From NCBI RefSeq assembly GCF_003334405.1, contig NZ_QOWM01000002.1: a DNA stretch of 64,000 nt; one strand, 5' to 3'. The notes below the pieces were generated by a model. The model did not search any database and had not been told where the DNA came from. It worked only from the letters and a program-made list of their open reading frames with translations. A program made the translations under genes and the position numbers. The stretch comes from Escherichia coli. Its GTDB lineage: Bacteria > Pseudomonadota > Gammaproteobacteria > Enterobacterales > Enterobacteriaceae. Below are positions 3,983 to 48,272 of this stretch, in pieces; position 1 is the stretch's first letter, and each line of letters starts with the position of its first letter.

Positions 3983-4162
3983 CAGCGAACACATCGGTTT
4001 TGCTGTTTTTTTCCGCAGTTGATACAATGCGATAAAATTGCCCTTGCGAAGGTCATTCGCTTTGGTTAGTATTCACACCCGCTTCAGTGGGAAAGATTAA
4101 AAACTCCCGCTTTATTGGTTGAAGCATTGGTACGCGGCAACTCCGCAAGGAACAGGTTGATT

Positions 4163-4495
4163 ATGTATGAAGCTCTTTTAGTAGTTTTCCTTATTGTGGC
4201 AATTGGCCTTGTTGGTCTGATCATGCTGCAGCAAGGTAAAGGCGCTGATATGGGAGCCTCCTTCGGAGCAGGCGCTTCCGCTACGCTGTTTGGTTCAAGT
4301 GGTTCTGGTAACTTCATGACCCGCATGACGGCGCTGCTGGCAACGTTATTCTTCATCATCAGTCTGGTGCTGGGTAACATCAATAGCAACAAAACCAATA
4401 AAGGTAGCGAATGGGAAAATCTGAGTGCACCGGCGAAAACCGAACAAACTCAGCCAGCTGCTCCGGCTAAGCCGACCAGCGATATCCCGAACTAA
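4163..4495 (+). CDS. secG: protein-export membrane protein SecG
   Basis: Track ORF 4115..4495 trimmed to MYEALLVVFLIV; two hydrophobic segments and a Gly/Ser-rich loop. Confidence 0.92.
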   Translation: MYEALLVVFLIVAIGLVGLIMLQQGKGADMGASFGAGASATLFGSSGSGNFMTRMTALLATLFFIISLVLGNINSNKTNKGSEWENLSAPAKTEQTQPAAPAKPTSDIPN

Positions 4496-4508
4496 AAAGT
4501 AGTATCCG

Positions 4509-4595
4509 TGCCGAGGTGGTGGAATTGGTAGACACGCTACCTTGAGGTGGTAGTGCCCAATAGGGCTTACGGGTTCAAGTCCCGTCCTCGGTACC
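4509..4595 (+). tRNA. leuU: tRNA-Leu, anticodon GAG
   Basis: Cloverleaf readable: acceptor GCCGAGG/CCTCGGT, anticodon loop CTTGAGGT, long variable arm, 3' ACCA; sits 13 nt after the secG stop. Confidence 0.88.
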
Positions 4596-4603
4596 AAATT
4601 CCA

Positions 4604-4633
4604 GAAAAGAGACGCTGAAAAGCGTCTTTTTTC
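4604..4633 (+). terminator. Rho-independent terminator after leuU
   Basis: aaaagAGACGCtgaaaaGCGTCTtttttcg. Confidence 0.55.
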
Positions 4634-5054
4634 GTTTTGGTCCTGGTCTGAGGAATGGTTGTCAGGTATCTGTATCTCGTCCAGTTGCTTTACTCGTAGC
4701 TGGTACCTTGAAACGATGGTGCCGGTACGCCTTAGTTATAAATTTTTCCCTTCTACTGACATAATTGGCACTTTATTGTGTCAACTCCAGTTCCGGTACG
4801 AATACGGATATGTTTACTTCTCGATAAACCATCCTGCTCCTGTCAGTATAACGACTGATGGCTACGTTCTGCGTAATGTTTAGAGACGCATTGATAATGT
4901 TATTTAATTACTGAGAACGCAATGGCCGCATCATTTAAAAAGAAAAAACTAACAGTGTTTCGTTCTGATATGGATCAGAGTTGAAAAACATGTCTGATAT
5001 AAAATTAAACATTGTTGATAATTGTTTATATTGGTTGTGAACTTGGATTTCTGG

Positions 5055-6680
5055 ATGACAGTATTCAACAAATTTGCTAGAACTTTTAAATCTCATTGGT
5101 TGTTGTATCTTTGTGTTATTGTTTTTGGTATTACGAACTTAGTCGCTTCTTCCGGAGCGCATATGGTTCAGCGCTTGCTGTTCTTCGTTCTGACCATCCT
5201 GGTTGTAAAACGTATATCATCCCTTCCGCTTCGCCTGCTTGTTGCCGCACCATTTGTGTTACTGACTGCGGCAGACATGAGTATTAGCCTCTATTCATGG
5301 TGTACCTTTGGTACAACTTTCAATGATGGATTTGCGATTAGTGTGCTCCAGAGTGATCCGGATGAAGTTGTCAAAATGCTGGGGATGTATATCCCTTATC
5401 TATGTGCCTTTGCTTTTTTATCCCTTCTTTTTTTGGCAGTAATAATAAAATATGATGTTTCCTTGCCGACAAAAAAAGTGACAGGAATATTATTGCTGAT
5501 TGTCATTTCGGGCAGTTTATTTTCCGCTTGTCAATTTGCTTATAAAGATGCAAAAAATAAAAAAGCGTTCAGTCCATATATACTAGCGTCGCGATTTGCT
5601 ACCTATACGCCGTTTTTCAATCTCAACTATTTTGCTTTAGCAGCGAAAGAGCATCAAAGATTACTCTCAATTGCAAACACGGTGCCGTATTTTCAATTAT
5701 CAGTCAGGGATACAGGTATTGATACCTACGTGTTGATTGTGGGGGAGTCTGTACGTGTCGACAATATGTCTTTGTATGGATATACACGCTCTACGACACC
5801 GCAAGTTGAAGCACAAAGAAAACAGATCAAACTGTTTAATCAAGCAATAAGCGGCGCACCTTACACTGCGCTGTCGGTTCCCCTTTCTTTAACTGCTGAT
5901 TCTGTTTTGAGTCATGACATTCATAATTACCCCGACAACATTATTAATATGGCTAATCAAGCAGGATTTCAGACTTTCTGGCTAAGCTCGCAATCCGCTT
6001 TTCGGCAGAATGGTACAGCAGTTACCAGTATCGCCATGCGCGCCATGGAAACAGTTTATGTCAGAGGATTTGATGAATTGTTGTTGCCGCATTTATCGCA
6101 AGCATTACAGCAAAATACGCAGCAAAAGAAACTGATTGTTCTTCATTTAAATGGAAGCCATGAACCGGCTTGTAGCGCCTATCCGCAATCCAGCGCCGTG
6201 TTTCAACCGCAGGACGATCAGGATGCCTGCTATGACAACTCCATTCATTACACAGATAGTTTGCTAGGTCAGGTTTTTGAATTATTAAAAGATCGCCGCG
6301 CCTCGGTCATGTATTTTGCCGACCACGGCCTGGAACGTGACCCTACGAAGAAGAACGTCTATTTTCATGGAGGCAGGGAGGCTAGCCAGCAGGCATATCA
6401 TGTCCCGATGTTTATCTGGTATAGCCCCGTTCTTGGGGATGGCGTGGATCGCACAACGGAAAACAACATCTTTTCGACAGCTTACAATAATTACCTTATT
6501 AATGCGTGGATGGGGGTAACAAAGCCGGAACAGCCGCAAACGCTTGAGGAAGTGATTGCACACTATAAAGGAGACTCACGGGTTGTGGATGCAAACCATG
6601 ATGTTTTCGATTATGTGATGCTCAGAAAGGAGTTTACAGAGGATAAGCAAGGTAACCCCACCCCTGAAGGGCAGGGTTGA
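5055..6680 (+). CDS. yhbX: EptA/sulfatase-family inner-membrane protein (putative phosphoethanolamine transferase), AT-rich gene
   Basis: Track ORF 5022..6680 trimmed to MTVFNKFARTF; N-terminal multi-TM region then a sulfatase-like soluble domain; visibly AT-rich. Confidence 0.8.
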   Translation: MTVFNKFARTFKSHWLLYLCVIVFGITNLVASSGAHMVQRLLFFVLTILVVKRISSLPLRLLVAAPFVLLTAADMSISLYSWCTFGTTFNDGFAISVLQSDPDEVVKMLGMYIPYLCAFAFLSLLFLAVIIKYDVSLPTKKVTGILLLIVISGSLFSACQFAYKDAKNKKAFSPYILASRFATYTPFFNLNYFALAAKEHQRLLSIANTVPYFQLSVRDTGIDTYVLIVGESVRVDNMSLYGYTRSTTPQVEAQRKQIKLFNQAISGAPYTALSVPLSLTADSVLSHDIHNYPDNIINMANQAGFQTFWLSSQSAFRQNGTAVTSIAMRAMETVYVRGFDELLLPHLSQALQQNTQQKKLIVLHLNGSHEPACSAYPQSSAVFQPQDDQDACYDNSIHYTDSLLGQVFELLKDRRASVMYFADHGLERDPTKKNVYFHGGREASQQAYHVPMFIWYSPVLGDGVDRTTENNIFSTAYNNYLINAWMGVTKPEQPQTLEEVIAHYKGDSRVVDANHDVFDYVMLRKEFTEDKQGNPTPEGQG

Positions 6681-6687
6681 TGTCGAA

Positions 6688-8046
<1,359 letters not shown>

Positions 8047-8256
8047 TTAATTAACTGATGATGAGCCTGGATTTCCGCTCTCACTGAATTTTTATGCAAA
8101 ATAAATGAGTTTTCATTTAATCATCTTTTATCGGAGACAGGAAGAGTTTAGTGTGTTTTTTGTAAAATAATGCGCTTAAGGGAGAGCAGGAGAAGGCAAA
8201 AGTATTCAACAAATGAAAGTGAACTGGATATTCATTCACATGATTAGCAATAAACG

Positions 8257-8286
8257 TTGACAAAATGTGGCGTGGATCACTATAAT
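8257..8286 (+). promoter_or_regulatory. Near-consensus sigma70 promoter (TTGACA, about 18 nt spacer, TATAAT) upstream of metY
   Basis: ttgacaaaatgtggcgtggatcactataat read directly; about 95 nt upstream of the tRNA. Confidence 0.5.
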
Positions 8287-8378
8287 GCCTGCAGATTTTA
8301 CGTCCCGTCTCGGTACACCAAATCCCAGCAGTATTTGCATTTTTTACCCAAAACGAGTAGAATTTGCCACGTTTCAGG

Positions 8379-8455
<77 letters not shown>

Positions 8456-8577
8456 CTTTCCCTTAGAGTCCTTTTTCAAATATACTGTGAAGACTTCGGC
8501 CTTCGTAGTGGGATTTGAAAAAATCCTTCTGGAAAGTGCTCCAGACCGCAGTTGCGGTTATAGGGTTCAGTTATATA

Positions 8578-8606
8578 AAGCCCCGATTTATCGGGGTTTT
8601 TTGTTA
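8578..8606 (+). terminator. Rho-independent terminator after metY
   Basis: aaaGCCCCGATttatCGGGGttttttgtt. Confidence 0.5.
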
Positions 8607-8661
8607 TCTGACTACAGAATAACTGGGCTTTAGGCCCTTTTTTTATGTCTTGGGGGTGGGC

Positions 8662-9114
8662 TTGTCCACATTAGAGCAAAAATTAACAGAGATGATTACT
8701 GCGCCAGTTGAGGCCCTGGGTTTTGAACTGGTTGGCATCGAATTTATTCGCGGTCGCACATCCACACTGCGCATCTATATTGATAGTGAAGATGGCATCA
8801 ATGTTGATGATTGTGCTGATGTGAGCCACCAGGTAAGTGCTGTGCTGGATGTTGAAGATCCCATCACCGTTGCTTATAACCTGGAAGTCTCCTCACCGGG
8901 TCTCGATCGCCCACTGTTCACGGCTGAACACTACGCCCGTTTTGTCGGAGAAGAGGTGACTCTGGTTCTCCGTATGGCGGTACAAAACCGTCGTAAATGG
9001 CAGGGCGTTATCAAAGCGGTAGACGGTGAAATGATCACAGTTACCGTCGAAGGTAAAGATGAAGTGTTCGCGCTGAGTAATATCCAGAAGGCGAACCTGG
9101 TTCCCCACTTTTAA
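8662..9114 (+). CDS. rimP: ribosome maturation factor RimP
   Basis: Track ORF 8650..9114; N-terminus [12 protein letters not shown] suggests a UUG/GUG start near 8656-8662; first gene of the nusA-infB operon. Confidence 0.8.
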
Positions 9115-34202: not shown

Positions 34203-34240
34203 AGCGTTGCGTTAATCAAAACGCAACGTCTTCTTTTACC
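34203..34240. terminator. Hairpin between convergent rsmI and yraK (possible bidirectional terminator)
   Basis: aaGCGTTGCGTTaatcaaAACGCAACGtcttctttt. Confidence 0.4.
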
Positions 34241-35327
34241 GCACGATGACGGTAATGGTGGCTGTGCCCTGAAATTTTCCTGTTTCCAGCTCACCACCGA
34301 CCAGATTAACTGGCCAGGCGCGCATATTGACGGTGCCATGCCCGGAAGGATCAACGGGAAGGATACCGTTCTGAAAAGGAATATTTGCAACTCCGCCGCC
34401 GAGATTTTCAATACGAATACCGACATCGGGCACATTGTCTGAACTTCTTCGCCTGGCGACCAGGTTGTACTGGTCTACTACCCCAGTTGTACCGTCGATG
34501 CGCATTTGCAACGAGTTTTTAATCTTTGAAGTATCACCACAGTCATAAGTGATATCAAAGTCTACTGGAGTAAAACCGTCTGGCATGGCATTGCGGGTGG
34601 TAAACTTCTGACCATTGATGAATCCAAAATTAACCTTAATAACATCGCCCTGATTAATTTTGCACGACTGTGGGGCGGTGAGATTTCCCTGAATCGATAA
34701 CTTGACTAAATCATGGAAGTCACCTGTAGACGGGCTTCCCATTCCATCGACCCACGCGCCTTTAATGACGGCAATATCCGTTTTCGGAATGGTCATCGAG
34801 CCGAGAAATGGCTTGGTGACATACAGGGTAAAGGTGGTGTTCGCACCAATATTAACGGGTCCATAACGAGACGTATCACCCTGGCAAACACCCGTTTGGG
34901 TTGCAGCAGAATATACCGTGTTGTTTTTTATCTGTGTGAATCGGGTGTTAACAGAGACAACCTGGTCGGTTGTGAGTCCTGGAATGTCGTTTGCCTGTAA
35001 TGTGGTTTTAATATCCAGGCTGTCATTGAGTTTGTAATATCCTGTCTGATGTCCAGTGGTGGTAAGTACGGGGCTGACCATATAGACAAGTTTAACTGCC
35101 TTACCCGCAGAGCAGGAACAGGCGTATTGCCAGTTAGTGCTACTTAGCGTTGCAGAGGTAAACTCCCGTCCTGTCACGTTATCTGTCTGGTTCACCGTAA
35201 CATCATCAACCACACTGCTGTAATTTGTCGCACCGCTAGTGCTGTCGGCTCCACACCCTCCTGAGGAGGCATAAGCGCAGGATGTGGATATCAACAAAAG
35301 ACCTGTTATAAGAGGCGCTCTTTTCAT
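34236..35327 (-). CDS. yraK: fimbrial adhesin-like protein of chaperone-usher fimbriae
   Basis: Track ORF 34236..35585 trimmed to MKRAPLITGLLLISTSCAYA (signal peptide); last gene after the usher. Confidence 0.8.
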   Translation of the reverse strand: MKRAPLITGLLLISTSCAYASSGGCGADSTSGATNYSSVVDDVTVNQTDNVTGREFTSATLSSTNWQYACSCSAGKAVKLVYMVSPVLTTTGHQTGYYKLNDSLDIKTTLQANDIPGLTTDQVVSVNTRFTQIKNNTVYSAATQTGVCQGDTSRYGPVNIGANTTFTLYVTKPFLGSMTIPKTDIAVIKGAWVDGMGSPSTGDFHDLVKLSIQGNLTAPQSCKINQGDVIKVNFGFINGQKFTTRNAMPDGFTPVDFDITYDCGDTSKIKNSLQMRIDGTTGVVDQYNLVARRRSSDNVPDVGIRIENLGGGVANIPFQNGILPVDPSGHGTVNMRAWPVNLVGGELETGKFQGTATITVIVR

Positions 35328-35337
35328 TTTTTTATCC

Positions 35338-37854
35338 TTAATGGCACTGCGCTGTGCCTTGTAATACAGAGGTTGTAGGTTCTGAATCCGGTGTACTGAA
35401 AGCAAACTGACATTGTTGATCTGCCTGATTTCCCCAGCGTACAGTCCAGCTTTGTGATTTACTCGATATCCCAGAGAGATATAGTATGCCGCCCTCATCG
35501 ACGATACTTTGTTGCCCTGTATCATCGTTGCTGGCAAGAGCGCCAAAGGGCAACGGTTTACCGTTGCGATCGCTGACTGTAACAAGTACGCGATAACCGA
35601 TATTGGCGTTGAAACGCGCCGCTACCATTGCACCTCTGTTGGGCACCACAAACTGTGTTGTTTGTTCAAGATCGACGTTATCGGGCAGCTGCGTAGTATC
35701 TACCGAGAGACGGTTTTCCTGATAAGTTGTGAGATAAGGAACCACTGCATAGCCAAAAGGATCGGTAGCAATCCCCGGATAGTTTTGTATCCTCACGCCA
35801 GATGCTCCGTTAGCATCGATAAGCGCAAAAGCGTTGCCCAGATATTGCGAGAGCGTCACGCCATGAGGATGGATAACCACGCCGCCGGTAACGCCGTAAT
35901 TGTATTGGCTGCTGTCATTACCGTAGCTGTATCCGGCACTGAAGGTGCCATAAGGTGAACGGTAACTGGCGTTCAGGCTACTGTTATGGTTGTTATCGTC
36001 ATCCAGACTTTGTTCCAGGCTATAGCTCAGGCGACCATCATCCAGCAGTGAGCCATCAAGACGCATTTCATGTTGGGTTGGGCGATCTTTCTGGCTGGTC
36101 ATCTGATAGGAAACCCGGCTACGCGGTAACCAGCGTTCTAACGGAATACTGAGATTCAAAGAGAGTGCGCGGTCATTATTTTGATCAGTGTAGCGGCTGT
36201 ATTGATAATTCAGGCTGTAACCAACTCCCCATTGCTGGCCGGAAACCCCAACAGAGATATTCCTGTTTTTATCGTTATTGCCCCAATAGTCTTGCTGCGA
36301 ACCGGAGGCATACAGACTTACCCCATCAAATATTGTCTGGCTGATGTTGAATTGAATTTCACTTTTTTGGCGACTGTTATAGTCCCAATTGCGGGTATTG
36401 GCTTCATTAAAACTAAAATAGCCATCGTTGGTATAGCGATAGTAGCTGACAGCGATATTGGTGTTGGTTTCCGGGATATCTTTGATGTACTGCGTACGCC
36501 ATTGATAGCCATGAAAAGAGTGCTGGTTATCGAATTGGGTGTCAGCTCTGTTGATATCCATCGACAACGCGCCCAGTGCGCCAAGTGTGCCGCCGATACC
36601 GATCCCCAGCGCATAATAATCTTCAGAACCGAGCAGGCCGCCATACAGCGTAAAAGTATTATTCAAACCATATATTGCCGTGGCTTCAGCAAATTCGGGT
36701 TCCTTGCTATCACTGTTTGCATCAGCGCGATAGCGTCCAGCGGTCGCGCTATACTTTAGATGCCCAGGTCGCTGCATCATGGGTAATGAAGAATAAGGCT
36801 GGATAAAGCGACGTTGTGTACCGTCACTTTCTTCAATCGTGACTTCTAAATCGCCGCTGTTGGAAGAGGGGTAGAGATCGTTAATTTCAAAGGCACCCGC
36901 TGACACGTTGCTTTGATAGATCACATAACCATTTTGCCTGATAGTCACGATTGCACTACTGTTTGCGATACCGCGTACCGTTGGGGCAAATCCGCGCTGG
37001 CTGTTTGGCAACATATTATCGTCGGAAGCGAGTTGCACGCCAGTAAAGGTGTAGCTGGAAAAAATACTGCCGCTGGTGGCGCTTTCTCCCAGAAGCAACT
37101 GAGACTTCAACGCCTTGATATCACGTTGTAAATAACTACTGATGGTATTCCAGCTTGATGTCTGATCGTTGCGTGTCCATGTGGAATAGTTGCGTAATCG
37201 CCAGGGGCCAAAATTAGCACCATTTTGCATATTCAGGTACTGTCGTTGGCTACGATTGCCCTGGCGGTAACGGTTATCAGAACCTGTAAACGAGTAGTTG
37301 GTAAACAGCGTTGGTATACCATCGTCCCAACGAGAAGGGGAGACGTAACCTCTTGCATCACGGTACAGTGCAATTTGGGGAATGCTCAAATTAAGTTGCT
37401 GATGATTGAAATCAAATTCAGCAGCTGTACCGGGAATGATTTGTTCAAGCGAGTTGATCACGCTATCGTCATCTTTTTCAGCCAGCGCCGGGATTTCATC
37501 CACCTTAATACCCAGCTCACGTAGTTGTTCTACCGTAAACTGTGGCTGCAGAAGTTGCTCTGCATTGGCGGTAAATGTAATTTTTTTCTGTGAAACCTTC
37601 TTTTTATTCAGCCAGATATCAACCTGATAAGTTCCTGGTAGTTGTGCATATTTTTTTGAAAAACGCGACAGATCGGTTGTTTGCATACCACTTTTTGTGG
37701 TTTCCAGCATAATGGGGTCGAAATAATACTCTTCGGCGTTAGCGGTAGTGCAAAGCATGCCGCTGCCAGTGAGCACCATCGGCAAACAACGTTTGATGAT
37801 GAGCGCCAACTGTTTCGGTGTGCGTTTATGTCCCTGGTGGTGTCGTTGTGGCAT
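35338..37854 (-). CDS. yraJ: fimbrial outer-membrane usher protein
   Basis: Track ORF 35338..37929 trimmed to MPQRHHQGHKRTPKQLALIIKRCLPMVLTGSGMLCTTANA; FimD/PapC-like size. Confidence 0.88.
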   Translation of the reverse strand: MPQRHHQGHKRTPKQLALIIKRCLPMVLTGSGMLCTTANAEEYYFDPIMLETTKSGMQTTDLSRFSKKYAQLPGTYQVDIWLNKKKVSQKKITFTANAEQLLQPQFTVEQLRELGIKVDEIPALAEKDDDSVINSLEQIIPGTAAEFDFNHQQLNLSIPQIALYRDARGYVSPSRWDDGIPTLFTNYSFTGSDNRYRQGNRSQRQYLNMQNGANFGPWRLRNYSTWTRNDQTSSWNTISSYLQRDIKALKSQLLLGESATSGSIFSSYTFTGVQLASDDNMLPNSQRGFAPTVRGIANSSAIVTIRQNGYVIYQSNVSAGAFEINDLYPSSNSGDLEVTIEESDGTQRRFIQPYSSLPMMQRPGHLKYSATAGRYRADANSDSKEPEFAEATAIYGLNNTFTLYGGLLGSEDYYALGIGIGGTLGALGALSMDINRADTQFDNQHSFHGYQWRTQYIKDIPETNTNIAVSYYRYTNDGYFSFNEANTRNWDYNSRQKSEIQFNISQTIFDGVSLYASGSQQDYWGNNDKNRNISVGVSGQQWGVGYSLNYQYSRYTDQNNDRALSLNLSIPLERWLPRSRVSYQMTSQKDRPTQHEMRLDGSLLDDGRLSYSLEQSLDDDNNHNSSLNASYRSPYGTFSAGYSYGNDSSQYNYGVTGGVVIHPHGVTLSQYLGNAFALIDANGASGVRIQNYPGIATDPFGYAVVPYLTTYQENRLSVDTTQLPDNVDLEQTTQFVVPNRGAMVAARFNANIGYRVLVTVSDRNGKPLPFGALASNDDTGQQSIVDEGGILYLSGISSKSQSWTVRWGNQADQQCQFAFSTPDSEPTTSVLQGTAQCH

Positions 37855-37882
37855 TCCCTGATGACCTGTGTTTTTATATTTT

Positions 37883-38578
37883 TTATTGCAGTGGACGAGT
37901 TTCTGTCCCGGAACTGCCGCCATAATCATTGATCGCAGCCCATTTCACGTTCTTTCCGCCAGATGCAGGAAGTGGTAACTGTTTATGTTCTCCGGGCGCG
38001 ATATATTCAATTTTGCTTGTGAGATCGGTTTTATCGACTGCCAGTCCGGCAAATACGACGTAATATTCAGTTGGGTTATATATATTGAGTGAATGGTCAC
38101 TACGTTTAAATTCCAGTGATTTCCACGCATCGTTTACCCGTCCCTTCAGGTGTGCGGGGCGATAAAACATTTTGATCCGTGTTTTAAATACCAGCGTCAA
38201 CTCGTTAGCATTAACATCATCTGATTTTTTCTTTGCTGGAATGGCACGAACATTAATGTAGAACAGCGACTCTTTATTTTCAGGCAGGTTATCAGCTGTT
38301 TTAATAATTCGCAGTGATGAGTCATCGCCAGCCTCAAGACGAAATAGCGGTGGGGTTATAATAAATGGGGCACGGCTTTTACCATCTATATTATCTACCC
38401 ATGATTGCAGTAAATAAGGCGTTTCTGCGCCTTTGTTTGCGACAGGTAACGCAGCCTCTTTGCGGCTGGCATCATAGATCACTCGCGTTCGCTGTAAAAC
38501 GATTCCTCCTGCAAGCGCCTGGCCAATACAGAAGCTACACAACAAGGTTAATATCACCGCGAATGTTCGTTTTGACAT
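37883..38578 (-). CDS. yraI: fimbrial periplasmic chaperone (PapD-like)
   Basis: 231-aa ORF with signal peptide [23 protein letters not shown]. Confidence 0.88.
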
Positions 38579-38657
38579 AGTTATTTTTCAACCTGATACA
38601 ACGAGAAAGAGGAAGGAAAAGGGCGTTATCTGACAGGTCAGATAACGCCCTAACGTA

Positions 38658-39242
38658 TTAACGGTAATCCAGCGTTACGTTAACGATAGCGTCTGCTTCC
38701 CCTGGGGTGATTTCTGATGGAACTACGGTTGATACGTAGTAAGCGATGAGGTCAACATTGACAATACCATTGGATTCCGCCGGGATCTGATAAACCGTGT
38801 TATCATTGCCCATAGCATTCAGTGGCATAATGTTTCCGCTTTCCGCATCGTCAATACGGATACCCACACCTGTTGCCGCTATGCCAGCAAAAGAGCCTAC
38901 TTTTGCCAGATTAGGGAAGTTAGGGACGGTGCCATTATCTCGCGTTTCCAGCCATAGACGGAAAGACGCTTCAACGTTGCCGTTATCGTGCTCCCACCCA
39001 GTCATTGGGCAGTTAACTAAAGGAATAGTGAATGGAATTTTTGGGCTACGCTCGCCAATATTACGAAACTGTTCGGCATTATAGTGACCAAGAGCAACTT
39101 CAATTTTCTTATCAGAGTCATTGATTTCACAAGCGGATTTTAAAATCTCGCCATCAAAAACTATTTCACCATCGGTTGCAGCGGCATTACCTGCGAAAAG
39201 CGCAAGTAAGCCCGCAATAGCTGTTTTTGTAACTTTATTCAT
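38658..39242 (-). CDS. yraH: fimbrial major-subunit-like protein
   Basis: 194-aa ORF with signal peptide MNKVTKTAIAGLLALFAGNAAA; first gene of the operon, preceded by a 400-bp AT-rich region. Confidence 0.85.
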   Translation of the reverse strand: MNKVTKTAIAGLLALFAGNAAATDGEIVFDGEILKSACEINDSDKKIEVALGHYNAEQFRNIGERSPKIPFTIPLVNCPMTGWEHDNGNVEASFRLWLETRDNGTVPNFPNLAKVGSFAGIAATGVGIRIDDAESGNIMPLNAMGNDNTVYQIPAESNGIVNVDLIAYYVSTVVPSEITPGEADAIVNVTLDYR

Positions 39243-39642
39243 ATATAACCTTATCCTTGTAACAAGTACATAATCATATTTAATGTGAATATATGTTCAA
39301 CATCTTTAAAGATTATACAGGCAGAAATATTTCATTGAACATTAAATAGACTGAACTTTAAGATTATATTTATATGCAAATATTTGATATTTTCATTATA
39401 TTGATATCAATTTTCTATGTATTCAAAAGAGTATAAATGCCTGACTTTGCTGCGCCAGGGGGCGAGTCAGAATACGAGGTGATTTATTAATAGAACAAGT
39501 TATATGTATATCTAAAATTAAATTGTTGAACATAACTCCTTTTGCTATCGGCGTTATGTTCAACCCAGTCAAATGTTATTTAATATAATGCGTGACTGTT
39601 ACATAAGTTAATTTAAACATTTTGAGCAAATTTTTCATCTGG

Positions 39643-45042: not shown

Positions 45043-46176
45043 TCAAAACGAAGCTAATTGACCCTGAATCCAGATTTGTTGCACATGTAGCCCGCTATCC
45101 AGCGCAACGACGCTGGCGCGTTTGCCCGGTTTAAGCGATCCCAGAACACCATCAACACCCAGCATTCGCGCCGGATGCAGCGACGCCATATGGATGGCTT
45201 CCGCAGGCGTTACGCCCGTCAACTCGACCATATTGCGCACTGCCGCATCAACAGACAGCGTACTGCCCGCCAGCCCACCAGACGCGGTACGGACAACGCC
45301 ACCGTGCATCTGCACTTCTTCACCACATAACGTATAGCGACCATCCGGCATCCCAGCTGCCTGCATCGCGTCGGTGATCAGTACGATTCTCTCTTTCGCA
45401 CAGCAACAACACAGCGACATTGCCGCCGGATGCACATGATGACCATCGGCTATCAGTTCCAGCCAGGCGCGCTTGTCCGTTAATCCCGCGCCAACCATTC
45501 CCGGTTCGCGGTGATGTAAACCTGTCATCCCGTTATAGCAATGCACCAGGCCGTCGGCACCAGCATCAAATGCGGCGCGGGTTTGTTGCCAGGTCGCCGC
45601 GCTATGCCCCAGCATCACCCTTACGTTTTGCTGTTTAAGATGGCGGATGGCCTGCAATGCCCCTTCTTTTTCCGGTGCCAGCGCTACCACACGTAAGGTG
45701 TGCTGAGAAACGGCAATCAACTGATCCAGCTCGGCAATTTCAAGCTCGCGAAACAACTCCGGCGGATGCGCGCCTTTATTCTGCGGCGTGAAGTACGGTC
45801 CTTCGAGATAACTCCCCAGCACTTGCGCACCAGGTCCGCCGCGTTGGCAACGTTGAGCAATACGTTTCAGCGCCGCATGAATGGTATTAAGCGGCGTGGT
45901 TACGGTGGTCGGTAACCAACTGCCGACACCTTCGCGTGCCTTGTGCATTGCCAGCTTGTCGAGTACATCCGGCGCGTCATCCATTACATCAACGCCCGCA
46001 CCACCGTGTACATGGGTGTCGATGTAAGCAGGGCAGAGCAGTTCCGCATCGCGTTCAGTCACGCCCGCTGGAATCGGTTCGATTGCTGCGATGACACCGT
46101 CAGCAATACGCAACTGATGGTCATCGAGCCATCCCTCTTCAGTCAGCAGCCTTCTGGCGCGCAGAACGTGTGTCAT
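45043..46176 (-). CDS. agaA: N-acetylgalactosamine-6-phosphate deacetylase, full length
   Basis: Track ORF 45043..46197 trimmed to MTHVLRARRL; metal-binding HVHGG near the N-terminus; not truncated as in K-12. Confidence 0.86.
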   Translation of the reverse strand: MTHVLRARRLLTEEGWLDDHQLRIADGVIAAIEPIPAGVTERDAELLCPAYIDTHVHGGAGVDVMDDAPDVLDKLAMHKAREGVGSWLPTTVTTPLNTIHAALKRIAQRCQRGGPGAQVLGSYLEGPYFTPQNKGAHPPELFRELEIAELDQLIAVSQHTLRVVALAPEKEGALQAIRHLKQQNVRVMLGHSAATWQQTRAAFDAGADGLVHCYNGMTGLHHREPGMVGAGLTDKRAWLELIADGHHVHPAAMSLCCCCAKERIVLITDAMQAAGMPDGRYTLCGEEVQMHGGVVRTASGGLAGSTLSVDAAVRNMVELTGVTPAEAIHMASLHPARMLGVDGVLGSLKPGKRASVVALDSGLHVQQIWIQGQLASF

Positions 46177-46607
46177 ATTCCTTCCTCGACCGGACATTCT
46201 TCATGGCAGCGGCCTAACTCGTCCACCAGACTGGTCAGCCCTCGGTGTCCACACTCCAGCGCCTGTACACGGAATTCTTCACCGCTTAACCCTTCGCGCT
46301 CCAGCACCATCTCCAGTAGCAGTTGCAAATTGGTGCCGGTGATCACTTCACAGCCCGGTTTTTGCATCGCCAGCGTTGAAGCTACGCGAAACGGCGTGCC
46401 GCCCAGCAAATCCGTCAGAAAAACAATGCCGTCTTCACAATCCAGTTGGGCGATGGCCTCTTCAAGCTGCGATGTAAGCAGCGCGGTGCTTGAGGTTTCC
46501 GGAAAATCGATGGCGATAAACTGCGATTGCTCACCGAGAATTTGCTTCATTGCTTTTTCCATGCCGCTGGCAAACCCGCCATGCCCTGTCAAAATAATAC
46601 TTAACAT
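46173..46607 (-). CDS. agaF: PTS mannose-family EIIA component (N-acetylgalactosamine)
   Basis: 144-aa ORF starting MLSIILTGHGGFASG; this gene is absent from K-12. Confidence 0.85.
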   Translation of the reverse strand: MLSIILTGHGGFASGMEKAMKQILGEQSQFIAIDFPETSSTALLTSQLEEAIAQLDCEDGIVFLTDLLGGTPFRVASTLAMQKPGCEVITGTNLQLLLEMVLEREGLSGEEFRVQALECGHRGLTSLVDELGRCHEECPVEEGI

Positions 46608-46624
46608 CTAATACCTCATTGTAT

Positions 46625-47509
46625 TTAAAGGAAATGGCAGAATTTACCGACGATGCCGAGAACCACGGTAACTGCAATCAGACGCAGCGGACTCCAGCCG
46701 CGGCGTACCAACCAAAACATGGTCAGGGTGTAGACCAACGGTAAGAAGGCCGGCATCAGTTTGTCGATAACATCAGCCTGTAACTTAACCACTGCGTCGC
46801 CCGCCGTGATTTCCAGCGTGGTGCTTAAACGAACATAGGTTGCCACCAGCGCACCGATTACCGTCATCCCAACGATAGACGCAGCATGGCCGACTTTTTT
46901 GGTATTCGCTTTAATCAGTGGAATCGCCGCCACGCCCATGCGGTAAGCATAATGCGCCAGACCAAAACGCAGCCCCAGGTGTACCACGTTGAACAGCACA
47001 ATAAAGACGACTGCGCCAAGAATGGAGCCTTGCAATGCCAGACTGGCTCCAATCCCGCCACAAATCGGCAGTAGCGTTAGCCAGAACATTGCATCGCCAA
47101 TCCCGCCAAGCGGCGCACCGACGGCAATTTTGGTGCTCTGAATACTGTTAACGTCCTGCTTAGAACGCTCCATCGCAAGGATAATGCCGATAACAAACGT
47201 CACCAGAAACGGATGGGTATTGAAGAAACCCATATGCCCCTTCATGGCGCGCGCCAGGTCGCGTTTATTAGTGTGGATCTTTTTCAGAGCAGGCAGCAGA
47301 CCGTACAACCAGCCAGAAGCCTGCATACGTTCGTAGTTAAAAGACGCTTGTAACAGCATGGAACGCCAGGCGACGCGGTTGATATCTTTTTTCGTCAGCT
47401 CCGCGCCAATGCTCTGATCTTCATACACGTTTTCATTGACGCCAGTCAGCAATGTTTCTTCGTTTTCACTGACGTTCGGCAGGGTGGTTTGATTAGATGC
47501 CATCTTCAA
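46625..47509 (-). CDS. agaE: PTS mannose-family EIID component (N-acetylgalactosamine)
   Basis: 294-aa ORF homologous in layout to agaD; absent from K-12. Confidence 0.85.
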   Translation of the reverse strand: MKMASNQTTLPNVSENEETLLTGVNENVYEDQSIGAELTKKDINRVAWRSMLLQASFNYERMQASGWLYGLLPALKKIHTNKRDLARAMKGHMGFFNTHPFLVTFVIGIILAMERSKQDVNSIQSTKIAVGAPLGGIGDAMFWLTLLPICGGIGASLALQGSILGAVVFIVLFNVVHLGLRFGLAHYAYRMGVAAIPLIKANTKKVGHAASIVGMTVIGALVATYVRLSTTLEITAGDAVVKLQADVIDKLMPAFLPLVYTLTMFWLVRRGWSPLRLIAVTVVLGIVGKFCHFL

Positions 47510-48272
47510 ATTCCTCTTTCTGTGCCGCAGGTTGAGTCGGTTCAGGAGATTTACGCAGCAAGTCGATCAGCGCCATCGCCAGCGCAGCGGCAGCAATAGC
47601 CAGCACTGGTAACTTGAGCCAGGCGGCGGCAACAAAGCCCAGGATGAAGTAGGGGATGTAGACGTTTTTCATCATGATTTTCAGCAGCACGGCAAAACCG
47701 ATTGCTGGCATGATGCCGCCCGCGACGCCGAGGCCGTCGATTAATCGTTGCGGCAGGACATCAATGATGGTTTTTGCATGTTCCGCGCCGAAGTAGATAG
47801 GCAGGAAAGCGCAGAGAAAATAGAAAATGCCGAGTGCCAGCAGTGCCAGATAGTTCACGCGTTCAATGCCGCGAGTATCGGCGTTCTCCGCCATCCGGTC
47901 GCAGCGAGACATCACGCCGGACATCACCGAGAACAGGAAGGTAATCCCCATCTGTACTGCGACAGCGAAAGGTACGGCGACACCTACTGCGACATCGGGT
48001 TTCACGCCAGTAGTAATGGCAAACGCCGTGCCGACGATAGTACCGATAATCACGTTAGGCGGCTGTGCGCCCGCCAGCGGGGCCAGCCCCATCCACACCA
48101 GTTCCAGCGTACCGCCGGTTAAAATTCCGGTATGCAGATCGCCAAGTACCAGCCCGACCAACGGGCCGAGGACCACCGGGCGGTGCATATGGGTTAGGCC
48201 GTTAAACATATCCAGGCCAGCGATAAAGGCGATAATGCCCAACGCAAATGCCTGCAACAGGCTGATTTCCAT
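47493..48272 (-). CDS. agaW: PTS mannose-family EIIC component (N-acetylgalactosamine), full length
   Basis: 259-aa membrane ORF; truncated in K-12. Confidence 0.85.
   Translation of the reverse strand: MEISLLQAFALGIIAFIAGLDMFNGLTHMHRPVVLGPLVGLVLGDLHTGILTGGTLELVWMGLAPLAGAQPPNVIIGTIVGTAFAITTGVKPDVAVGVAVPFAVAVQMGITFLFSVMSGVMSRCDRMAENADTRGIERVNYLALLALGIFYFLCAFLPIYFGAEHAKTIIDVLPQRLIDGLGVAGGIMPAIGFAVLLKIMMKNVYIPYFILGFVAAAWLKLPVLAIAAAALAMALIDLLRKSPEPTQPAAQKEEFEDGI

Follow-up and report, generated by a model that had tools for sequence, protein, structure and literature searches.

The yhbX gene of Escherichia coli lies between the leucine tRNA gene leuU and the convergent argG and raises two questions: how an AT-rich gene came to stand between core genes of ordinary composition, and which molecule the encoded protein modifies. 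We analyzed a 64 000-nucleotide stretch of E. coli DNA (assembly GCF_003334405.1, contig NZ_QOWM01000002.1; hereafter, the window), of which positions 4400-6900 are 100% identical to K-12-type E. coli chromosomes, where secG, tRNA-Leu, yhbX and argG are annotated. yhbX is an already known E. coli gene with a known open question, that of its acceptor; beyond the junction analysis, our results repeat existing genome annotation. [quoted passage not shown] We consider it highly probable that yhbX is a functional gene on a foreign single-gene cassette, encoding an EptA-like phosphoethanolamine (pEtN) enzyme with a conserved acceptor and low or conditional expression. The features of the locus are summarized in Table 1. 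The yhbX frame stays open 5' of its start codon as far as a TTG at 5022. Elsewhere in the window, the aga cluster is 2.3 kb longer than in MG1655.

Table 1. Features of the leuU-yhbX-argG region (positions in the window).
Feature	Position	Strand	Basis and remarks
leuU, tRNA-Leu(GAG)	4510-4596	+	ARAGORN; Rfam tRNA match; annotation; core gene directly upstream of the cassette
leuU intrinsic terminator	4604-4638	+	Terminator scan; 13-bp stem and T-run
Upstream non-coding part of the cassette, 416 bp	4639-5054	+	GC 0.385
yhbX CDS	5055-6680	+	Open reading frame and annotation; ATG start; 541 aa
yhbX membrane domain	5055-5690	+	aa 1 to ~210
yhbX sulfatase-fold catalytic domain	5724-6455	+	aa 224-467
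GC-rich hairpin, 11 bp	6654-6678	-	RNA fold; read on the strand of argG, 12 nt past its stop codon
Right junction	6681-6696		Spacer 6681-6687 (7 bp), argG stop 6688-6690, last two argG codons 6691-6696
argG, convergent core gene	6688-8031	-	Annotation

YhbX consists of a membrane-spanning N-terminal part and a C-terminal catalytic domain. The Pfam Sulfatase family (PF00884) covers residues 224-467 (3e-56) and five hydrophobic segments lie within residues 14-163, while the Pfam EptA_B_N membrane domain has no match in YhbX. The AlphaFold model (pLDDT 91.2, pTM 0.90) contains long helices at residues 2-29, 34-52, 57-85, 102-131 and 139-167, with short ones at 91-98, 174-183 and 190-207. In Foldseek, the full-length TM-score of the model is 0.61 to 5fgn and 0.62 to 9nww; the best domain-level match is the catalytic domain of EcEptC (TM 0.76-0.77), and target-normalized values (TMt) of 0.70-0.77 were obtained with the catalytic domains of EptC, EptA, MCR-1 and ICR. 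A phmmer search against the PDB matched YhbX to NmEptA, EcEptC and MCR-1; the GE(T/S), T-nucleophile, GSH, DHG and H(V/I)P motifs coincide in these alignments. Residues E231, T271, H369, D423, H424 and H449 align with the motif residues of NmEptA, and E104, G230-E231-S232, T271, H369, D423 and H424 are invariant across 44 members of the YhbX subfamily. The Pfam assignment, the hydrophobic segments, the PDB matches and the predicted structure all agree with the initial annotation, which had described a multi-TM N-terminus followed by a sulfatase-like domain of the EptA/pEtN-transferase family.

Within this family, YhbX stands apart. Its best NCBIfam matches are all pEtN transferases, and every curated cutoff is missed widely: 122 bits against 561 (NF007160) and 94.5 against 660 (NF008619) for the EptA equivalogs, 156.5 against 500 for the lipid A transferase model NF028537, 105 against 493 for EptB (NF008593), and 142 against 404 (NF007933) and 124 against 900 (NF012179) for CptA/EptC. 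Among the E. coli paralogues, BLASTP places OpgE closest (30% identity over 268 catalytic-domain residues) and gives the longest alignment with EptC (24% over nearly the full length); identity to E. coli EptB is 32%, in the catalytic domain only. The similarity to OpgE is below the level of orthology, and E. coli has a separate opgE gene. YhbX thus constitutes a sparse subfamily of its own, orthologous to none of EptA, EptB, EptC and OpgE. These comparisons bear on the possibility that YhbX is a lipid A pEtN transferase redundant with EptA/MCR and thus a latent polymyxin-resistance gene, which we regard as unlikely. Its top NCBIfam match is indeed the 'phosphoethanolamine--lipid A transferase' domain model, and EptA and MCR-1 are the structures that it matches best over its full length; however, the 156 bits obtained stand against a cutoff of 500 and the EptA equivalog cutoffs are likewise far from being reached, the N-terminal domain is unrecognized by Pfam, BLASTP favors OpgE and EptC rather than EptA, and BasR and PhoP boxes were not found in 4640-5054. 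That interval had been put forward as a place for such boxes, and we scanned it for the PhoP box (KGTTTA-N5-KGTTTA) and the PmrA/BasR box (YTTAAK-N5-YTTAAK). The PhoP-like matches all have three mismatches, and the only BasR-like match (4760-4776) has two. Window-wide, there are 171 PhoP-like matches against 136 ± 11 in shuffles, none of which reached 171, and 400 BasR-like matches, near the shuffle expectation of 362 ± 21. No box in 4640-5054 rises above chance, and the matches were dismissed as a sign of regulation by PhoP or BasR.

The 416 bp between the leuU terminator and yhbX presumably hold the promoter and 5' UTR of the gene. The sole promoter-like match on the + strand of 4639-5054 is at 4994-5022, in a scan whose yield was at chance level (six sites against 4.9 ± 2.3 expected); no Shine-Dalgarno match for yhbX is better than chance, and a permissive Rfam scan of 4000-9000 returned nothing between leuU and yhbX. 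For the RpoH holoenzyme, a weak SELEX peak has been reported in this spacer (PMC5493296). All six frames of the upstream region contain stops. The longest open reading frame (74 aa, 4659-4883) has no homology and was discarded as an unsupported gene; a 65-aa two-TM open reading frame that precedes the plasmid/island paralogue of YhbX has no counterpart in 4597-5060, and a hidden small upstream reading frame was also rejected. In six alleles, the upstream region looked far more conserved than four-fold sites (Fisher 2e-11), but an eleven-sequence control gave a π of 0.0157 against 0.011-0.022 for neighboring spacers; special conservation was therefore rejected, and the constraint on 4639-5054 is at the usual intergenic level. 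A published list of convergent genes with overlapping transcripts includes the argG-yhbX pair (PMC12288877). Expression of yhbX is probably low or conditional, as suggested by its AT-rich, rare-codon-rich sequence, the absence of any good match to a promoter or Shine-Dalgarno sequence and the convergent overlap with argG transcription.

Low expression might also mark a silent, functionless relic, xenogeneically silenced and heading for decay, a reading to which we assign little probability. Codon adaptation is poor, with a CAI-like value of 0.372, the minimum among the window's 40 validated genes, and 8.7 rare codons per 100 compared with 0.4-1.4 in glmM, argG, nusA and infB. The promoter and Shine-Dalgarno matches at chance level and the lack of a reported function point the same way; IS insertions interrupt yhbX in several strains, which indicates that the gene is dispensable, and the locus is in routine use as a neutral integration site. 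Against decay, dN/dS among six E. coli alleles comes to 0.088 for the whole gene and 0.05 for the catalytic domain, the catalytic residues are all intact and invariant across the subfamily, a full-length open reading frame is present in all 16 alleles examined, and the gene is kept in 5167 of 5426 E. coli genomes (~95%). yhbX is under purifying selection. Its four-fold π of 0.058 falls among the values for ftsH, folP, glmM and argG (0.046-0.091); within E. coli, it is as old as its flanking genes.

The composition of yhbX sets it off from this neighborhood. Its GC content of 0.431 and GC3 of 0.421 compare with 0.52-0.54 for neighboring genes, and no other of the 40 validated genes has so low a GC content; together with the CAI-like value, this agrees with the initial description of an AT-rich gene between GC-normal core genes. 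The segment 4639-6687 has a GC content of 0.421 and is thus atypical relative to its 2 kb flanks (0.524 on the left and 0.492 on the right); only 6.5% of 2049-bp segments across the 64 kb are equally AT-rich. The upstream region had likewise been singled out as some 400 bp of AT-rich DNA; its GC content of 0.385 over 416 bp accords with this, but spacers elsewhere in the window range from 0.27 to 0.61, so that AT-richness by itself does not make this region exceptional. Along yhbX, AT-richness is uneven: GC3 rises from 0.374 over the membrane part (aa 1-230) to 0.455 over the catalytic part.

The cassette extends from 4639 to ~6696, is roughly 2.05 kb long and indel-polymorphic, and fits the 4640-6680 first delimited. 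On the left, an E. coli without yhbX is identical up to 4638 and unalignable from 4639, so that the leuU terminator is the last sequence common with genomes lacking the gene; the E. fergusonii alignment stops at the same point. On the right, yhbX ends 7 bp from argG, as initially noted, and the cassette ends inside the last two argG codons. The C-terminus of ArgG reads NKGQ-stop here, NKVK-stop in the alternative E. coli allele and NKAK-stop in Citrobacter and E. fergusonii. In this allele, argG is without its ancestral intrinsic terminator (AAAAAAGGCCGC...GCGGCC), which is kept in Salmonella, Citrobacter and the alternative E. coli allele. A hairpin just past the argG stop codon is a putative terminator that also codes for GNPTPEGQG, the additional C-terminal tail found in E. 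coli YhbX. In E. fergusonii, by comparison, YhbX ends with DKQ, and CCCTGCCCATAAAAGGGCAGGG follows the gene; the E. coli hairpin is a degenerate version of the bidirectional terminator that the E. fergusonii cassette carries. We propose that, in the Escherichia lineage, a foreign cassette displaced the short leuU-argG spacer of the ancestor and that this replacement would have removed the terminator of argG together with its last two codons. The list of open reading frames contains no integrase or transposase in 4639-6696, no flanking direct repeats or att-like duplication were found around the cassette, and the sole tRNA-like repeat (20 nt, 75% match) is compatible with chance.

The distribution of the gene bears on the same point. 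An unrelated HTH gene occupies the site in 237 of the 5426 E. coli genomes (4.4%), and the leuU-argG spacer is only 180-210 bp in Salmonella and Citrobacter (two Citrobacter genomes). The outgroups came from an exact leuU scan of a genome-contig collection (16 loci, no Escherichia), and within Escherichia the comparison covers E. coli and E. fergusonii; a peptide-pattern scan of the same collection returned no relative, and absences there are not evidence. The E. fergusonii yhbX at the same site is 69% identical, compared with 95% for the left flank, and its upstream region is unrelated and unalignable. A further YhbX-like lineage (65% identity) is carried both by a plasmid and by a pap pathogenicity island, and the closest other relatives (41-48%), in Buttiauxella, Mixta and Microvirgula, are solitary genes at different loci. 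The homologues in the Buttiauxella, Mixta-like, Proteus and Microvirgula genomes stand alone among unrelated neighbors, which ruled out assigning a function from conserved neighborhood. The yhbX cassette is thus polymorphic for presence and absence and has sharp junctions, and its site is empty in sister taxa. That yhbX is instead ancestral and vertically inherited, was lost in Salmonella and Citrobacter, and is AT-rich only as a low-expressed hydrophobic membrane protein is very improbable. Its presence in ~95% of E. coli, its core-like four-fold diversity, the E. fergusonii homologue at the same site and the concentration of AT-richness in the membrane-domain half would suit such a history. 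It is opposed by the short spacer and argG terminator in Salmonella and the two Citrobacter genomes, the terminator being present in yhbX-less E. coli too, by the divergence of the E. coli and E. fergusonii genes (69%, against 95% in the flank) with unrelated upstream regions, by a GC3 that is also low in the soluble catalytic domain, by nearest relatives in distant genera at other loci and by the chromosomal paralogues eptA, eptB, eptC, opgE and bcsG, which encode membrane proteins too and have GC contents of 0.49-0.53. The exact junctions, the absence from Salmonella and Citrobacter, the alternative cassettes and the core-like four-fold diversity instead favor the initial view of an old, horizontally acquired gene.

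yhbX would encode an inner-membrane enzyme with five N-terminal TM helices and a periplasmic alkaline-phosphatase/sulfatase-fold domain. Judging from the aligned motifs, a metal-activated T271 (ligands E231, D423 and H424, plus H369 and H449) would take phosphoethanolamine from phosphatidylethanolamine, and YhbX may, by homology with EptA, MCR-1 and EptC, hand it to a periplasmic or envelope acceptor. That the same fold instead carries out another chemistry, as a phosphoglycerol transferase (OpgB-/LtaS-like) or a hydrolase (sulfatase, phosphodiesterase), is scarcely credible: the Pfam family is the generic Sulfatase, older annotations read 'hydrolase, inner membrane' or 'arylsulfatase', and LtaP, YejM and sulfatases occur lower in the fold-search list, but all 17 significant PDB sequence matches (to E 7e-11) are pEtN transferases, the nucleophile is Thr and not the Cys/Ser that becomes formylglycine in true sulfatases, and LtaS-/YejM-type structures have much lower TM-scores and 13-16% identity.

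The acceptor of a YhbX pEtN transferase is probably a species-conserved structure, such as the LPS inner core/lipid A region or an OPG-type periplasmic glycan, because ~95% of E. coli keep yhbX irrespective of their O-antigen or core type and purifying selection on the gene is strong. To our knowledge, every pEtN decoration known in K-12 is already assigned to an enzyme (EptA, EptB, EptC, OpgE or BcsG), so that none is left over for YhbX to account for, which counts against the proposed activity. In one study, knock-outs were set aside for either of two reasons, one being an envelope or permeability effect; that of yhbX was among them, with its reason unspecified (PMC4551910), and this is a weak link of yhbX to the envelope. 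A further idea, which we hold tentatively and consider rather doubtful, is that leuU-argG may be a cassette-exchange site at which divergent YhbX types (that of E. coli, the 69% identical type of E. fergusonii and the 65% identical plasmid/island type) replace one another among Escherichia lineages, and that these enzymes decorate a conserved envelope molecule, not so far known to carry phosphoethanolamine in E. coli, with a sixth, undescribed pEtN modification, expressed only when silencing is relieved.

YhbX is one of few E. coli members of the phosphoethanolamine-transferase family without an assigned acceptor, in a family that is important for the polymyxin resistance and envelope remodeling brought about by its members EptA and MCR. 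That yhbX is a foreign acquisition selected species-wide and that it is not orthologous to EptA, EptB, EptC or OpgE confine the search for its acceptor to those structures of the envelope that are conserved and justify targeted mass spectrometry. At the argG-yhbX site that is used for engineering as 'neutral', argG is without its ancestral terminator and overlaps yhbX.

The yhbX cassette resembles tRNA-associated genomic islets in its position directly 3' of a tRNA gene and its terminator, its atypical composition and the alternative cargo at the site; unlike these, it has no integrase, direct repeats or tRNA 3'-end duplication and its cargo is one gene. EptA/LptA/MCR-1 (5fgn, 9nww) have in common with YhbX a 5-TM N-terminal domain followed by a periplasmic sulfatase-fold domain, the Thr nucleophile, the metal ligands and a Glu of a periplasmic helix (E104 in YhbX), but their identity to YhbX is only 19-27%, the NCBIfam scores fall below the cutoffs and EptA_B_N is unrecognized; also unlike EptA, yhbX does not adjoin basRS and has no detected BasR box. 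YhbX has been grouped with YbiP and CptA, and in the same protein list YbiP and CptA, but not YhbX, are present in Salmonella and Citrobacter (PMC4013655). EptC/CptA and OpgE/YbiP are the closest chromosomal paralogues, with identity too low for orthology, and their genes, unlike yhbX, have core-genome composition (GC 0.49-0.50). PMI3040 of Proteus mirabilis and the 'phosphoethanolamine transferases' of Buttiauxella, Mixta, Microvirgula and Providencia are fellow members of the YhbX subfamily, with 33-48% full-length identity and invariant catalytic residues; their genes are solitary and have a long upstream spacer as yhbX does, but lie at another locus in each genus. The Lpt-O/Opt protein of Shigella flexneri is a plasmid-borne serotype-converting pEtN transferase (PMC3458804). 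Lpt-O/Opt and the small-plasmid pEtN transferases are likewise mobile single genes, which decorate a surface glycan; the latter are 28-31% identical to the YhbX catalytic domain, no nearer than OpgE. Unlike Lpt-O/Opt, YhbX is nearly universal in E. coli regardless of serotype, which argues against a serotype-specific acceptor.

The yhbX gene lies in a segment (4400–6900) that is 100% identical to K-12-type E. coli genomes and whose flanks have a match in every one of the 5426 complete genomes of E. coli. The RefSeq annotation of the identical record gives the gene order ftsH, folP, glmM, secG, tRNA-Leu (leuU), yhbX, argG (convergent), tRNA-Met, rimP, nusA and infB, and the distance of 7 bp between yhbX and argG given in the initial annotation is exact. 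Although the yhbX locus is identical to K-12, the source strain is not MG1655, as shown by 2.3 kb of additional sequence in the aga (N-acetylgalactosamine) cluster (45601–47896) and by a G instead of an A at position 8425 in the tRNA-Met gene compared with the K-12-type record. The rimP leader (8544–8644, upstream of rimP) was matched by Rfam with 102 bits, as expected for a rimP operon.

Coordinates of the features at the leuU–argG site and of related or alternative cassettes in comparison loci
Feature	Sequence	Position	Strand	Context
leuU, tRNA-Leu	window	4510–4596		
leuU terminator	window	4604–4638		
yhbX CDS, 541 aa	window	5055–6680	+	
argG	window	6688–8031	-	
65%-identical YhbX-like lineage	L006	188–2099		plasmid pRHB40-C01_2
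65%-identical YhbX-like lineage	L023	8459–9363		pap island, integrase adjoining, at glnH
Alternative HTH cassette	L005	2533–3486		E. coli O91 RM7190
Alternative HTH cassette, IS1-disrupted copy	L004	9272–11001		

The AT-rich segment noticed in the initial annotation is a real cassette between leuU and argG. With a GC content of 0.431 and a GC3 of 0.421, yhbX has the lowest GC of the 40 window genes with validated coordinates and is AT-rich compared with its GC-normal neighbours (0.524 and 0.492 in the 2-kb flanks of the cassette). Codon analysis agrees: the codon-adaptation value, with the window's own translation genes as reference, is the lowest of these 40 genes (0.372), and rare codons number 8.7 per 100 versus 0.4–1.4 in glmM, argG, nusA and infB. 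GC3 is uneven within the gene, at 0.374 in the membrane-domain part (residues 1–230) and 0.455 in the catalytic part. The 416-bp upstream region, also described as AT-rich, does have a GC of 0.385, but taken alone this is unremarkable, lying inside the range of the other window spacers (0.27–0.61). The other phosphoethanolamine (pEtN) transferase genes of E. coli (eptA, eptB, eptC, opgE and bcsG) have a core-like GC of 0.49–0.53. Elsewhere in the window, the yraHIJK fimbrial operon (34236–39642; GC 0.44–0.48, GC3 down to 0.39, low codon adaptation), with a spacer of GC 0.273 upstream of it (39243–39642), is likely to be another foreign segment, and the lowest-GC 2-kb stretch (∼59450–61500, GC 0.33) is probably in the tdc regulatory region.

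The yhbX segment is present in 5167 of the 5426 complete genomes. In 237 others (about 4.4%) yhbX is absent and the site carries an alternative cassette, also AT-rich (GC 0.373), which codes on the opposite strand for a 317-residue protein; only an N-terminal helix-turn-helix (HTH) domain is recognized in it, and the remaining ∼270 residues have no match in Pfam, PHROGs or PADLOC. In the alignment, the two alleles are identical as far as 4638, where the T-run of the leuU terminator ends, and identity resumes only inside argG, with ArgG ending in NKGQ* in the K-12 type and in NKVK* in the alternative allele. The latter keeps an ancestral-like ArgG C-terminus together with the ancestral argG terminator, which is missing from the yhbX allele. 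Neither an integrase nor a flanking repeat marking the yhbX cassette was found among the ORFs or by repeat search at the locus. A 20-nt stretch of the upstream region (4704–4723) resembles the anticodon/variable-arm part of leuU (4538–4557) with 75% identity; chance could account for this likeness, and further tRNA remnants were not seen.

Searching for exact matches to the 87-nt sequence of leuU yielded 16 outgroup loci from other Enterobacterales. In Salmonella enterica subsp. diarizonae, Citrobacter amalonaticus and Citrobacter sp. MGH106, leuU and the convergent argG are only 180–210 bp apart, and this spacer contains the canonical argG terminator (AAAAAAGGCCGC...GCGGCC). ArgG ends in NKAK* in both Citrobacter genomes (the Salmonella C-terminus was not picked up by the pattern search). 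Since this short spacer and conserved terminator occur in the outgroups, and the terminator is kept in yhbX-less E. coli, the ancestral state in the Escherichia/Salmonella/Citrobacter group is an empty site and yhbX an insertion into it. In Edwardsiella, Hafnia, Tenebrionibacter and an Enterobacteriaceae MAG (loci L007, L011, L015, L017, L018 and L020), leuU is followed directly by rimP–nusA, and in the three named genera argG is absent from the locus. This suggests that argG, too, was inserted here in the lineage of Escherichia, Salmonella and Citrobacter.

Six diverse E. coli alleles give an overall dN/dS of 0.088 for yhbX (membrane domain 0.17, catalytic domain 0.05). Four-fold diversity, from a second sample of eleven sequences, is 0.058 compared with 0.046–0.091 in ftsH, folP, glmM and argG; this core-like value argues that yhbX has been in the species for as long as its neighbours have diverged, and the gene is old and maintained. 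The initial annotation, which read yhbX as an old, horizontally acquired gene, was right in both observation and interpretation, given the empty ancestral site, alternative cassettes, exact boundaries and core-like diversity. The cassette boundaries, the empty site, the alternative cassettes, the selection and age estimates and the structural assignment are additions to that reading.

In E. fergusonii this site is occupied by a yhbX-family gene (locus L037, 5727–7640), encoding a protein 69% identical to YhbX. Its left flank, 95% identical to that of E. coli, breaks off past the leuU terminator at precisely the same position; the coding regions are 59–77% identical per 100 nt and the upstream regions are not alignable. 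With a dN/dS of 0.09 within E. coli, 31% protein divergence against a 5% flank difference fits an exchange of divergent alleles better than vertical inheritance, and the combination of this gene with an unrelated upstream region, an intact terminator and a closely similar left flank likewise points to allele exchange here. In E. fergusonii the reading frame ends after ...DKQ, with a clean bidirectional terminator (CCCTGCCCATAAAAGGGCAGGG) behind it; the ArgG of this species ends in NKAK*. E. coli yhbX lacks that stop codon, and nine further codons (GNPTPEGQG, 6654–6680) extend across a degenerate version of that terminator hairpin, which on the argG strand lies 12 nt beyond the stop codon of argG. 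The YhbX-like proteins of E. fergusonii and of a plasmid lineage end ∼10 residues earlier, and these nine codons at the end of E. coli yhbX represent read-through into the degenerate terminator.

This third lineage, 65% identical to YhbX and with ∼2955 database members, occurs on an E. coli plasmid of 62 kb and on a pap-carrying island. The plasmid/island gene is always preceded by a conserved hydrophobic ORF of 65 residues, for which the upstream region of chromosomal yhbX has no equivalent. Among 1.84 billion representative proteins, searched exhaustively, no other cluster was more than 50% identical to YhbX. The nearest full-length relatives beyond that are 41–48% identical (Buttiauxella, Mixta gaviniae and Microvirgula first; P0123, one of the 48% matches, is from Pectobacterium sp.), with those of Providencia and Proteus at 35–36%. 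In each genus examined the genes are solitary, between unrelated housekeeping genes.

PhoP or BasR boxes, which the first reading had proposed to look for in 4640–5054, do not occur above chance in the yhbX upstream region. Promoter-like matches there are at the count expected from shuffling, no small ORF with homology was found, and the leuU–yhbX spacer contains no Rfam family. The upstream region seemed strikingly conserved compared with four-fold sites, but neighbouring spacers proved equally conserved. Published data place a weak RpoH-holoenzyme SELEX peak in the spacer (PMC5493296) and argG–yhbX among convergent overlapping transcript pairs (PMC12288877); a GalR-like site inside yhbX has been predicted computationally. 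The gene and the question of its acceptor were already known, and the view that its substrate is not established matches the searchable literature, where papers mention yhbX but none characterizes it. YhbX is without established function in PMC4013655, which lists no YhbX among the compared proteins of Salmonella LT2 and Citrobacter rodentium. In a sigma-54 study (PMC4551910) a yhbX transposon knock-out was discounted on one of two grounds, one being an envelope/permeability effect, with the ground for yhbX unstated; the locus otherwise serves as a neutral integration or marker site.

As first proposed, YhbX combines a multi-TM N-terminus (five membrane segments by hydropathy) with a sulfatase-like domain of the EptA/pEtN-transferase family. 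Pfam recognizes only the Sulfatase domain (residues 224–467, 3e-56), and the NCBIfam matches are all pEtN transferases, with scores at least three-fold below every curated cutoff. The solved structures matched by sequence are NmEptA, EcEptC, CjEptC and MCR-1/2, with catalytic motifs aligned at Glu231, Thr271, His369, Asp423, His424 and His449; Glu104, Glu231, Thr271, His369, Asp423 and His424 are invariant across 44 subfamily members. A confident AlphaFold model built on the subfamily alignment (pLDDT 91.2, pTM 0.90) superimposes on full-length EptA and MCR-1 with TM 0.61–0.62 and on the EcEptC catalytic domain with TM 0.76–0.77. By sequence and predicted fold, YhbX is a genuine pEtN-transferase superfamily protein. 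Its target is most likely a conserved envelope structure, since almost every E. coli carries yhbX, under constraint, irrespective of serotype and core type. Comparison with the E. coli paralogues shows a separate subfamily, orthologous to none of the enzymes whose acceptor is known: BcsG gives no match, OpgE, EptB and EptA are 30%, 32% and 27% identical to YhbX in the catalytic domain only, and EptC is 24% identical over nearly the full length.
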